From a virus (lineage: Duplodnaviria > Caudoviricetes): a DNA stretch of 64,000 bases. A program made the translations under genes and the position numbers. Below, in pieces: positions 6,834-54,271 of this stretch. The notes under the pieces were generated by a model. The model worked only from the letters and a program-made list of their open reading frames with translations. It ran no database searches and was not told the origin of the DNA. How positions within the stretch are numbered: the first letter of the stretch is position 1; every line of letters begins with the position of its first letter. The stretch lies in the IMG/VR virus record IMGVR_UViG_3300034374_009547; one strand, given 5' to 3'.

Positions 6834-7367
6834 ATGCTTATGAGAACTGATGATTTAGGTATCCCACGATTTAGTAATCGCGATTTAATCGATATGATTT
6901 ATAGTGGTCAATCGGATAAAGTTCATGTGGTATTGTGTAATCCAAGTGATGACGTAGACAAATTTAATGCGGCAATGGAAGAACAAGGGTTTAACAAACT
7001 ACAGAAGTATATTCCACTAGATGTAGATCAAAAGACTTTTGACGGTGTATGTCAAAGTGAATGGTTTATGCCTGATGAATATAAAGCGATTAGCGTATAT
7101 GAATATGTTCTAGGTAAAGCAGAAACACCTTGTCCACAACACGTACAAGATCGCATTTGGGAAGAACTAGATGCTTTTAAAGAACGTAATATGCATAACT
7201 TACTACGCTATATGATCTATCTTGTAGATTTTATGCGTGAGAACGATATTGTATGGGGTGTAGGACGTGGATCTAGTGTAGCAAGTTATGTATTGTATTT
7301 GATTGGTGTACACAGAATTGATAGCATAAAATACAATTTAGACTGGCGTGAATTTTTACGTGACTAA
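6834..7367 (+). CDS. dnaE: DNA polymerase III alpha subunit (family C) fragment, 177 aa
   Basis: VWGVGRGSSVASYVLYLIGVHRIDSIKYNL matches the DnaE GRGSxxGSLVAYxLGITxxDP signature; the protein ends before the catalytic PDxDxD motif. Confidence 0.8.
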   Translation: MLMRTDDLGIPRFSNRDLIDMIYSGQSDKVHVVLCNPSDDVDKFNAAMEEQGFNKLQKYIPLDVDQKTFDGVCQSEWFMPDEYKAISVYEYVLGKAETPCPQHVQDRIWEELDAFKERNMHNLLRYMIYLVDFMRENDIVWGVGRGSSVASYVLYLIGVHRIDSIKYNLDWREFLRD

Positions 7368-9277: not shown

Positions 9278-9888
9278 TTCTTTGTGACGTAGAATTTGAA
9301 CTACCAAAAGGCCCTGTCGGTGTGTTGTGCAGCGGCGGGGCTGATAGTTCATTAATCCTTTATTTGTTAATGAAACATAGTAATCAACCATTACATGTCC
9401 TTACAATGGCAAATAGAAAAAAACATTTTACTAATGCTATAGTTGTAAGTAAAGTAATAGATTGGTGTATGAAAAAAACAAACAATAATAATATTGTACA
9501 TACCGTAAAATACGTCGATGAGCAAACAGACGAGCAATTACAACAACTAACAATTCAACATCTAAAAGTATTCCGTACAATTTACATTGGTGATACTTGT
9601 TATCCACCAGAAGATATACATGATGAATTTGTACAAAATACAGGCGATAGTTTTAATAAACTAGAAGATAGAAAACCAAATAAAAATCGTGCAACAAAAG
9701 CAGGGCCAATATATGTTCCATTTACAAATTATAACAAAAGAAAAATAGCCGAAATATACGAACATCTTGATATTATGGAACTTGCAGATATTACTCGCAG
9801 TTGCGAAACATTTGAAGATATTGGTACAAAACATTGTGGTAACTGCTGGTGGTGCAAAGAAAGAGAATGGGCTTTTGATAAACGGTAA
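9274..9888 (+). CDS. queC: QueC-like PP-loop ATPase (7-cyano-7-deazaguanine synthase-like)
   Basis: VLCSGGADSS PP-loop and TRSCE...HCGNCWWCKER zinc motif; short and divergent. Confidence 0.6.
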   Translation: MILCDVEFELPKGPVGVLCSGGADSSLILYLLMKHSNQPLHVLTMANRKKHFTNAIVVSKVIDWCMKKTNNNNIVHTVKYVDEQTDEQLQQLTIQHLKVFRTIYIGDTCYPPEDIHDEFVQNTGDSFNKLEDRKPNKNRATKAGPIYVPFTNYNKRKIAEIYEHLDIMELADITRSCETFEDIGTKHCGNCWWCKEREWAFDKR

Positions 9889-51462: not shown

Positions 51463-51673
51463 TATAGAACAATGGATTGAACGTATAAATGCAATGAAAG
51501 ATATGTGTATTCAAGCACATAGATTGCGTAATCAATACAGCGAACAAGTTGAAGAAACATACAACTATGCACAAGTAAAAGATATACTAGAGCAAGTGCA
51601 ATCAATGGCCGCCGGTATTGCAAATGAAAAAATAACCGAAATTAAAACAGAAATGGATGAATGGAAAAAATGA
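51452..51673 (+). CDS. Hypothetical protein
   Basis: GGAGG RBS plus TTG start. Confidence 0.55.
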   Translation: MQHSIEQWIERINAMKDMCIQAHRLRNQYSEQVEETYNYAQVKDILEQVQSMAAGIANEKITEIKTEMDEWKK

Positions 51674-52224
51674 AACGCAAACATTATACTTGGGACGATG
51701 TACATAAATGTGCTCACAAACTAGCACTGGAAATGTACAAAACTGGATTCAAACCAGATTATATTGTAGGACTCAACAGAGGCGGTCTGCCTATCAGTGT
51801 TGTGTTAAGCCATTTATTAGACTGCGACCATTATGCGCTAGATGTACGGTTACGTGATAACAAAGGAGAAACTGGACCTGAATCTAACTGCTGGATGGCA
51901 GAAGATGCGTTTGGGTATGTATCTCAAATTGATAGAGATGATGTTTGGAGTAAATCTACTAGCGATACTGCTAAGAAAAAGAAAATTTTAATTGTAGATG
52001 ATATCAACGATACTGGTGCTACATTTAAATGGATTAAAGAAGATTGGCAAGCAGGTTGTTTACCAGATAGTCCAAACTGGGATACCATTTGGAATCAAAA
52101 TGTTCGCTTTGCTGTAATGTGTGAAAAAACACATACCGAGTTTGATGGGGTTGACTATGTATGGCAAACCATAGATACAGGTGAAGAAGATACATGGATT
52201 GTGTTTCCATGGGAATATGATTAA
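51661..52224 (+). CDS. Type I phosphoribosyltransferase (xanthine/guanine PRT-like)
   Basis: VGLNRGG, ILIVDDINDTGAT PRPP-binding loop, WIVFPWE. Confidence 0.88.
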   Translation: MEKMKRKHYTWDDVHKCAHKLALEMYKTGFKPDYIVGLNRGGLPISVVLSHLLDCDHYALDVRLRDNKGETGPESNCWMAEDAFGYVSQIDRDDVWSKSTSDTAKKKKILIVDDINDTGATFKWIKEDWQAGCLPDSPNWDTIWNQNVRFAVMCEKTHTEFDGVDYVWQTIDTGEEDTWIVFPWEYD

Positions 52225-52562: not shown

Positions 52563-52579
52563 AAACCATAGTTAACCTA

Positions 52580-52608
52580 TTGACAAATAATCTAAATAAT
52601 GTTACTAT
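52580..52608 (+). promoter_or_regulatory. Sigma70-like promoter TTGACA-N17-TACTAT
   Basis: Exact spacing; upstream of folE. Confidence 0.7.
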
Positions 52609-52613
52609 AAACA

Positions 52614-52640
52614 ATAGACATCCTCGTCTATAACTCGGAG
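52614..52640 (+). promoter_or_regulatory. folE leader hairpin adjacent to the SD
   Basis: ATAGAC-ATCCTC-GTCTAT starts at about the predicted +1, followed by AACTCGGAG. Confidence 0.5.
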
Positions 52641-52646
52641 AATAAA

Positions 52647-53378
52647 ATGACAGAAGAAGTAAAAGGACTTAATACTGACAATGTTGAGCCTGTAAAGATT
52701 AGTCAAGTAGTACGTGAAAGACTACAAAAAAACGGTGTTCGTTTTTATGCAAATGACAATATTAGTGAACATATTAGTGAATTTGAATTACAAGAGATTC
52801 AAAACGAATTAAAATACAAGTTCCAAGATGTACTAGATACACTTATTATTGATACAGAAAACGATCCAAACAGCATGGATACTGCAAATCGTTTGGCGAA
52901 GATGTATATTCATGAATTGATGCGTGGAAGGTATTATCCGCAGCCTAATGCAACTGCATTTCCTAATCATACAGATGATGCGTATGATGGTATGCTTGTT
53001 GTGCGTAGCGAACTTAAAAGTGTTTGTTCGCATCACCATCAACCAGTTACAGGTGTAGCATATATTGGTATTCTTGCTGCTGATAAACTTATTGGATTAA
53101 GCAAGTATACACGTATTGCACAATGGTGTGCTAGACGTGGCACACTACAAGAAGAACTTGCAATGGATATCTGTAAAGAAATAATGAAAGTTACAGGTGC
53201 TAAAGATTGTGGTGTTTATATTCAAGCAACACACGGTTGCTGTGAAAATAGAGGCATTATGGCACATAGTAGTTTAACACAAACAAGTGTACTAAAAGGT
53301 GCGTTTAAAACTGATCCTGGTACAAAGAAAGAATTTTTTGATAACATTAAATTACAACAGGAGTTTGCACCGCGATGA
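52647..53378 (+). CDS. folE: GTP cyclohydrolase I
   Basis: SVCSHHHQP, IGLSKY.R, QEEL, ATHGCCENRG. Confidence 0.95.
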   Translation: MTEEVKGLNTDNVEPVKISQVVRERLQKNGVRFYANDNISEHISEFELQEIQNELKYKFQDVLDTLIIDTENDPNSMDTANRLAKMYIHELMRGRYYPQPNATAFPNHTDDAYDGMLVVRSELKSVCSHHHQPVTGVAYIGILAADKLIGLSKYTRIAQWCARRGTLQEELAMDICKEIMKVTGAKDCGVYIQATHGCCENRGIMAHSSLTQTSVLKGAFKTDPGTKKEFFDNIKLQQEFAPR

Positions 53379-54271
53379 AACTAAGATATAGTGAAGCATT
53401 TTATAGTGTGCAAGGCGAAGGCAAATTTGTAGGAGTACCTAGTGTATTCCTACGCACCTTTGGTTGTAACTTTCGTTGTATGAATTTTGGTGTGGATAAA
53501 AGTGTTGGCAGTCGTTGGGAGCAACACGCAAAAGGTCAACGCTACAACGCAGAAGTAAAACAACTGCTAGATGACGGTGTTCATGAAACTACAAAAGAGT
53601 TTAATGATTTGCCTATTGTGCATACAGGCTGCGATACATATGCAAGTATCTATCCAGAATTTAAACACTTCAATATGCTTAAAAGCGTAGATGAAGTTGT
53701 AGAACACTTGTTGAGTTTGTTGCCGGAAGGCAAATGGACTATGGATAATGGACAAGATGTTCATCTTATCCTTACAGGCGGCGAGCCATTACTTGCTTGG
53801 CAACGGTTGTATGTCGAGCTGTTTGAACACCCAGGTATGCAGGATCTAAAAAATGTCACAATCGAAACCAACACTACACAGCATCTACACGATGACTTCT
53901 ACAACTATCTCAATGGTCACGAAAGAATTCAGCTCACTTTTAGCTGTTCTCCCAAACTATCCGTATCGGGCGAGTCTTGGGATGATGCTATTAAGCCTGA
54001 TGTTGCTCGTGAGTATTCCCTTGTTGATGGCAGCAATATGTATTTTAAGTTTGTTGTTGCTGATCAGAGTGATGTTGACGAAGTTGGTAGAGCAGTTGAT
54101 ACCTATCGTAAAGCGGGCGTGGATGTTCCTGTATATCTCATGCCGCTTGGGGGTAGGTCGGAAGAATACACTCTCAACGTACAAGAGGTGGCGAACCTCT
54201 GTATGGAACGAGGGTGGAGGTTCTCGCCAAGACTCCACATTAGCCTATTCGGAAATGCCTGGGGCACTTAA
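53375..54271 (+). CDS. queE: 7-carboxy-7-deazaguanine synthase (radical SAM)
   Basis: EAFYSVQGEG...VFLRTFGCNFRC...CDT, LTGGEP, IETN, SPK, PRLH. Confidence 0.92.
   Translation: MKLRYSEAFYSVQGEGKFVGVPSVFLRTFGCNFRCMNFGVDKSVGSRWEQHAKGQRYNAEVKQLLDDGVHETTKEFNDLPIVHTGCDTYASIYPEFKHFNMLKSVDEVVEHLLSLLPEGKWTMDNGQDVHLILTGGEPLLAWQRLYVELFEHPGMQDLKNVTIETNTTQHLHDDFYNYLNGHERIQLTFSCSPKLSVSGESWDDAIKPDVAREYSLVDGSNMYFKFVVADQSDVDEVGRAVDTYRKAGVDVPVYLMPLGGRSEEYTLNVQEVANLCMERGWRFSPRLHISLFGNAWGT

Follow-up and report, generated by a model that had tools for sequence, protein, structure and literature searches.

Comparative sequence evidence for a short, widespread cis-regulatory RNA in the folE leaders of phages

Results

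The folE locus and its leader

The window, by which we mean the whole 64,000-nucleotide stretch of DNA analysed here, belongs to a 113.7-kb record of an uncultured phage that is about 32% complete. Its plus strand encodes folE, a GTP cyclohydrolase I gene of 243 aa (52647-53378; PF01227, 1e-38; phrog_2197), followed by a gene for a QueE-like radical SAM protein (53375-54271, plus strand; phrog_2076, 6.5e-52). The start of the QueE-like gene overlaps the folE stop, which places the two in the same operon. Upstream, an intergenic stretch (52563-52646) separates folE from a 67-aa ORF (phrog_1811). A purine-type phosphoribosyltransferase gene (51661-52224) lies upstream of the folE promoter; many relatives carry such a gene between folE and queE instead. 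Elsewhere in the window, a 205-aa ORF (about 9601-9882; G000:C1:56783-57064) aligns with no more of the QueC model than its C-terminal 80 positions (25 bits).

The intergenic stretch holds a compact set of plus-strand signals. Sequence inspection and a promoter scan identified a -35 hexamer, TTGACA (52580-52585), and an extended -10 element, TG-t-TACTAT (52600-52608), separated by a 17-nt spacer and scoring 10/12 matches in addition to the upstream TG. The position of the -10 element predicts a +1 at about 52614-52616. Within the promoter spacer, a CTAAATA element (52592-52598) resembles the T4 late promoter TATAAATA. Downstream of the promoter, a hairpin is formed by the P1 5′ strand ATAGAC (52614-52619), the loop AUCCUC (ATCCTC in the DNA; 52620-52625) and the P1 3′ strand GTCTAT (52626-52631), with a conserved core of AGAC (52616-52619) and GUCU (52626-52629). 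The core is followed by a tail, L3, of sequence AUAACUC (52630-52636), and by the Shine-Dalgarno (SD) sequence GGAG (52637-52640). A sequence-only reading of this DNA had drawn attention to the promoter, the hairpin ATAGAC-AUCCUC-GUCUAU, the GGAG and the folE start, and we recovered all four at the positions it gave.

Taken as a single sequence, the hairpin does not stand out. Its minimum free energy (MFE) is -5.7 kcal/mol (z -0.60), and 49 of 200 shuffled sequences folded equally well. The significance of the hairpin depends entirely on comparison with relatives. The SD is unpaired in the MFE structure, and neither the exact palindrome nor the motif occurs a second time in the window.

Conservation and covariation among relatives

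With the FolE protein as query, a scan of viral contigs found 80 loci (67-94% identity), and 49 of them (about 60%) carry the leader element. These leaders share a layout of short stem, loop A-U-C-C-N-C, a tail ending in AACUC or AACAUC, and GGAG placed 5-10 nt ahead of the start codon. Their stems differ widely, including GAC/GUC, GUC/GAC, GGCA/UGCC, CCCA/UGGG, GCCA/UGGC and GUG/CAC among others. Across a set of 42 distinct leaders, made up of 41 FolE-anchored ones and the window's own, each of the three loop-proximal P1 pairs was paired in 42/42 and was represented by two to three pair types, and the fourth was paired in 39/42 (93%) with four types. Pairs 5 to 7 were not conserved, so the 6-bp stem of the window has a conserved core of 4 bp, and its outer two pairs are specific to its lineage. 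Reading through the loop of the same 42 leaders, we found A in all 42, U in 40, C in 41, C in 42, any base except G at the fifth position (A in 22, U in 18, C in 2) and a final C in 42. The AAC and the UC of the tail showed no variation in the FolE-anchored leaders.

We then quantified covariation in a MAFFT alignment of 135 distinct sequences. P1 cells were paired in 96% of cases and all four pairs varied on both sides, giving a covariation score of 0.503 compared to 0.101 for shuffled alignments, with none of 500 shuffles reaching 0.503. When the pairing partners were slid by 1-3 columns, the score was 0.074 or lower. RNAalifold independently predicted the same four P1 pairs, G-U pairs were rare, and the pattern was strand-specific. 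The sequence-only reading had made its proposal of a feedback element depend on the stem and loop being conserved among relatives; in the leaders compared here the stem covaries, and there is next to no variation in the loop, the tail or UCGGAG. On these comparative grounds, the folE leader is a real phage cis-regulatory RNA of about 24-26 nt (52614/52616-52639).

Two leader classes and exchange of cassettes

The leaders fall into two classes. In class A, which includes the window, the loop is closed by C-G or G-C and the tail ends in AACUC; in class B, the closing pair is A-U and the tail ends in AACAUC. Closing pair and tail form were associated in 64/64 FolE-anchored distinct leaders. The two classes are interleaved on a FolE tree of 133 rows, where well-supported branches force at least eight changes of class A and at least five of class B. 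Two loci with near-identical FolE, L336 and L339, carry entirely different promoter-plus-leader cassettes, one of class A and the other of class B. This contrast and the interleaving of the classes indicate that leaders have been exchanged as modules, and the tree pattern is that of cassette swapping by recombination. Given such swapping, linkage alone could explain the 64/64 association; the association is suggestive, and may reflect a tertiary contact between closing pair and tail or linkage alone.

The leader is tied to the Shine-Dalgarno sequence rather than the promoter

UCGGAG keeps a fixed offset in every one of the 80 distinct leader instances whose stem is 4 bp; class A leaders have GGAG 7 nt from the stem, class B leaders 8 nt. 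Three variants with longer tails (L007, L011 and L043) keep UCGGAG further downstream. Within the window, 18 of 68 ORFs have GGAG upstream and just one has UCGGAG, namely folE itself. The invariance of UCGGAG in the leaders and its rarity in the window indicate that more than ribosome binding constrains the SD sequence. The distance between the -10 element and the stem, on the other hand, ranges from 3 to 52 nt among relatives. With stem-to-SD spacing fixed and -10-to-stem spacing variable, the element is tied to the SD and not to the promoter. The earlier observation that the hairpin sits at the predicted +1 therefore stands for the window (about 52614-52616) but does not carry over to relatives, and 'the hairpin begins at +1' is a local coincidence.

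The upstream region has regularities of its own. The arrangement of TTGAC, about 6 nt and YTAAATA was found again in relatives, and 119/129 distinct relatives have YTAAATA in the 100 nt ahead of the motif, more than the 73/129 in which a -35/-10 pair was found. In the window, TTGAC-N7-CTAAATA occurs without mismatch only at the folE promoter, and two further copies of CTAAATA, at 7364 and 18006, each lie just ahead of genes. By its sequence, CTAAATA may serve as a second folE promoter, and the frequency of YTAAATA together with the other gene-proximal copies suggests dual early and late promoters. Upstream of the motif, six relatives (L001, L002, L013, L026, L333 and L338) have a terminator-like hairpin in which GGTATACT...AGTATACC precedes a U run, and in several relatives such a hairpin overlaps the -10 element, between CTAAATA and the motif; it may block read-through from the upstream operon.

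Association with folE, copy number and range

Two pattern scans of viral contigs, in which loop and tail were fixed and the stem was given as N, yielded at least 240 matches. Among the matches listed, 224 of 240 had at least three consecutive loop-proximal pairs, compared to a chance expectation of about 5%. All 216 stem-bearing matches listed with enough sequence had a folE homologue within 1.8 kb downstream, and in 213 of the 216 scorable ones FolE was encoded within 200 nt. Among the stemless scorable matches listed, folE lay downstream in 0/15, and discordant cases were absent. Of 143 loci with the motif, 95 also have a queE-like gene downstream of it, and the motif heads either folE or a folE operon, in which folE is sometimes followed by the phosphoribosyltransferase gene and then by queE. 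Four loci (L106:548-937, L110:1892-2281, and L050 and L053 at about 2490-2880) carry an ORF of about 129 aa between motif and folE that matched no Pfam or PHROG family. One phosphoribosyltransferase match at +87 from the motif was rejected; it mixed upstream and downstream gene positions and had no similarity to FolE.

The element occurs once per genome. A covariance model, R1, found one match in the window at 50.6 bits, with the runner-up at 7 bits, and one match in the 113.7-kb record. A second model, R2, built from both leader classes, was run on five phage records 159-519 kb long and found exactly one strong match per record, with all others at 15 bits or lower; two of these five records are complete, with terminal repeats.

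For cellular genomes, we scanned one genome per species from 185,579 bacterial and archaeal species with the commonest stem only. The scan gave six matches and no true leader copy: five were coincidences within coding sequence of high-GC genomes, and the sixth fell on a phage-like contig of 5.5 kb that had been assigned to a Crocinitomicaceae MAG. Among cultured GenBank phages, megablast with the region matched nothing, and blastn with the 38-nt leader returned only SD-like fragments. The pattern ATGT-ATCCNC-ACAT/ATGT recurs within coding sequence at many loci; it lacks the tail and the SD there and hence is not the motif. Judging from these scans, the leader RNA is widespread, found in phages alone among the genomes scanned, and specific to folE.

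A cultured jumbo phage, Sinorhizobium phage Phosso (L409; PV764938, 152300-152413), encodes a FolE 59% identical to that of the window. Its folE leader has CTAAATA, a UGUGG-13 nt-CCACA hairpin with a loop ending in UC, a long A-rich tail and AGGAG. The leader, which had no Rfam match, is possibly a longer form related to the motif, and the phage could give experimental access to it.

A putative pseudoknot between loop and Shine-Dalgarno sequence

The sequence-only reading had pointed out that the loop could pair with the SD over just 3 bp, and this much is borne out, as UCC at 52621-52623 is complementary to GGA at 52637-52639. These would be the 5′ and 3′ strands of a second helix, P2. If P2 forms, the order of elements is P1-L1(A)-P2-L2(N,C)-P1′-L3(7-8 nt)-P2′, which is that of an H-type pseudoknot. 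We infer that the loop UCC pairs with the GGA of the SD and closes such a pseudoknot in miniature. In the alignment of 135 sequences, P2 is 99% 'paired' with both strands invariant, which puts it beyond the reach of covariation. Rare natural loops weaken P2 (ACCCAC in L025, ACACAC in L079 and UCUCGC in L031), and the closest relative of L031 carries the canonical loop, making that case uninformative on P2 covariation. A single-nucleotide L1 spanning P2 and a ligand layer would be a tight fit. By analogy with preQ1-I riboswitches, C52625, which stands just before the P1 3′ strand, is a candidate ligand-pairing base.

No Rfam family was reported at E up to 10 in slices of 50-600 nt from the window and from a class B relative, in line with the earlier impression that the leader matches neither the preQ1-I nor the THF-II model, yet the same scan misses the E. 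coli type III element. Specifically, Rfam 15 cmscan at E up to 10 left the validated type III preQ1-I riboswitch of E. coli K-12 yhhQ unreported in a 76-nt slice (L408:5176-5212). Since this positive control was missed, Rfam negatives are weak evidence on kinship with type III and are unreliable for very small pseudoknot aptamers. The phage model R2, for its part, does not match the E. coli yhhQ leader.

Discussion

Given these features, which explanation best accounts for the folE leader? By analogy with known aptamers, we favor, with modest confidence, the reading of the leader as a miniature preQ1-I-like riboswitch. In such a riboswitch, a guanine-like ligand would pair with the invariant loop C and be stacked between P1 and P2. 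The bound ligand would stabilize the pseudoknot and so hide the SD and lower FolE translation, making the element a translational OFF switch, and repression of FolE would throttle the entry of GTP into the phage 7-deazaguanine DNA-modification pathway. Since the MFE structure leaves the SD free, the default state without ligand would be ON.

The genes of the pathway bear on the identity of the ligand. QueD was present in 5/5 phage records tested, and full QueC was not seen in the window's record or in four related phage records, which gave partial matches or none. With FolE, QueD and QueE present and a convincing QueC absent, CDG, 7-deazaguanine or a related or later pathway base is a likelier ligand than preQ1. 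We extend this, more tentatively, to a proposal that we regard as possible though still short of probable: that the leader represents a new, phage-confined riboswitch class and the smallest natural aptamer (about 24-26 nt), sensing a non-preQ1 7-deazaguanine base (CDG or 7-deazaguanine) through a pocket made of the L1 adenine, the loop C and the SD-adjacent UC, and metering GTP into DNA hypermodification during infection.

The serious rival to a riboswitch is a translational operator of the T4 gp43 kind, in which a phage protein binds the hairpin loop and the SD and represses translation. Candidates for that protein are FolE or QueE, acting autogenously, or another phage RNA-binding protein. 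A variable stem with an invariant loop and an invariant SD-overlapping flank is typical of RNA-protein operators, the motif always accompanies folE so that an autogenous regulator would always be at hand, and the putative P2 is weak. FolE, however, is a plain PF01227 protein, with the model extending over residues 61-234 and no RNA-binding domain seen. Leader cassettes also move between phages, whether their FolE proteins are nearly identical or divergent, and the RNA is unchanged across about 30% FolE divergence. The invariant C before the P1 3′ strand and the complementarity of the loop to GGA are features of the preQ1-I pocket for which a protein would have no need. On balance, we regard a protein operator as unlikely, though it is the alternative that deserves most weight.

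A lesser rival is an element that acts independently of any ligand, either a constitutive stem-loop or pseudoknot at the 5′ end, governing mRNA stability or holding folE translation at a constant low rate, or a target of a nuclease such as T4 RegB, which cuts within the SD and cleaves GGAG. In its favor, stem-loops at the 5′ end of a transcript protect mRNA and the hairpin is predicted to lie at or near that end; GGAG does not vary; and the phage has T4-like traits in its CTAAATA elements. Neither version of this rival fits well: a stabilizer or spacer could do without the six unchanging loop bases, the invariant AAC(A)UC tail and the constant spacing to the SD, and RegB-type sites occur on many early genes, whereas the motif is found once per genome and only at folE. 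We therefore hold this rival to be improbable, and more so than the operator.

We give almost no credence to a DNA-level feature, whether an inverted-repeat repressor operator at the promoter's +1 or a chance palindrome: the perfect 6-bp inverted repeat at the predicted +1 and a fold energy no better than that of shuffled sequence speak for it, but the arms vary while staying complementary around an invariant, asymmetric spacer, the opposite of a protein-bound DNA palindrome, the pattern is strand-specific with G-U pairs rare, a second copy is absent from the window, and the variable distance to the promoter (3 to 52 nt) alongside the fixed distance to the SD excludes a DNA operator at +1.

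Returning to the riboswitch, our full-text literature search found no description of this element. Riboswitches are regarded as rare in phages (PMC9004378), and the preQ1-I aptamers, at 30-34 nt, are held to be the smallest natural ones (PMC10622847). If the riboswitch interpretation is right, the lower size limit for metabolite-sensing RNA would drop to the roughly 25 nt of this widespread, phage-only element, and phages would exert feedback control over their own DNA-hypermodification pathway at its committed step, GTP cyclohydrolase I. The element would also offer a compact, portable sensor for 7-deazaguanine-type bases. Should the leader turn out to be a protein operator instead, it would still add a new means of translational control that is very widespread in phages.

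Several known systems invite comparison with the phage leader. The THF-II riboswitch, the folE motif of alphaproteobacteria, is likewise found upstream of folE; it senses folates and is a long hairpin, about 50 nt, whose internal loops are conserved, whereas the phage element, at about 25 nt, is unrelated in consensus and size and had no Rfam match at E up to 10. The gp43 translational operator of T4 and RB69, also from large phages, is a hairpin with a conserved loop and an adjacent SD-overlapping sequence, bound by its own gene product. Its hairpin-plus-SD arrangement is like that of the folE leader, and the two sequences are dissimilar.

The closest parallels lie with the preQ1-I riboswitches, in which UC or AC precedes the P1 3′ strand and that C is the ligand-pairing 'specificity' base (PMC11625349). 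The phage loop has U, A or C and then C at the same place, with the last loop C found in 42/42 leaders. A covarying P1 of about 4-6 bp, as in preQ1-I, is seen here as four pairs, and the association with queuosine or 7-deazaguanine genes is present in folE, the queE-like gene and QueD. The U or Us of L1 and the L3 adenines directly before P2, which preQ1-I also has, are not found in the phage leader, where L3 reads W-W-A-A-C-(A)-U-C. In solved structures, preQ1 is contacted by an L1 U and by an L3 A adjoining P2; the phage leader has A and UC at these places. Types I and II of preQ1-I (B. subtilis queC, T. tengcongensis and C. antarcticum) are alike in their topology, P1-L1-P2-L2-P1′-L3-P2′, place UC or AC before the P1 3′ strand and the first SD bases in P2, as in the layout proposed for phage, and control que biosynthesis operons, comparable to the folE/queE-like operon headed by the phage leader (PMC11625349). 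They differ in being bacterial, in having loops of 10-13 nt, a longer L2 and an A-rich L3, and in that some are transcriptional.

Type III preQ1-I, exemplified by the E. coli/Shigella yhhQ leader (RF00522), has a short pyrimidine-rich loop that pairs with the SD GGA as P2 (PMC11625349, PMC10622847). The E. coli leader reads UUGGG-UUCCCUCAC-CCCAA-UGGUUAAUCAAAAAGG. It and the phage leader both have a very small H-type pseudoknot layout that acts on translation, inferred on the phage side, and in both the loop is short and pyrimidine-rich (AUCC-AC in phage, UUCC-CUC-AC in E. coli). The phage P2, as proposed here, would likewise take its 3′ strand from the SD (GGA), and both leaders have a tail with UAAC/UAAUC-like bases (UUAACAUC-GGAG in phage, UUAAUC-AAAAA-GG in E. 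coli) and are associated with the 7-deazaguanine pathway. They differ in loop length (6 nt in phage, 9 in yhhQ), in L1 (a single A compared to UU(C)), in P2 (a putative UCC:GGA compared to CCU:AGG) and in what directly precedes the SD (UC in phage, an A run in yhhQ). Further, the phage P1 has four conserved pairs of free sequence, whereas in type III three G-C pairs are conserved; the gene behind the element is folE in phage and a transporter in type III; and the element described here is found only in phages. Set against this background, and by analogy of layout, the E. coli yhhQ leader appears to have a shorter relative in the phage element.
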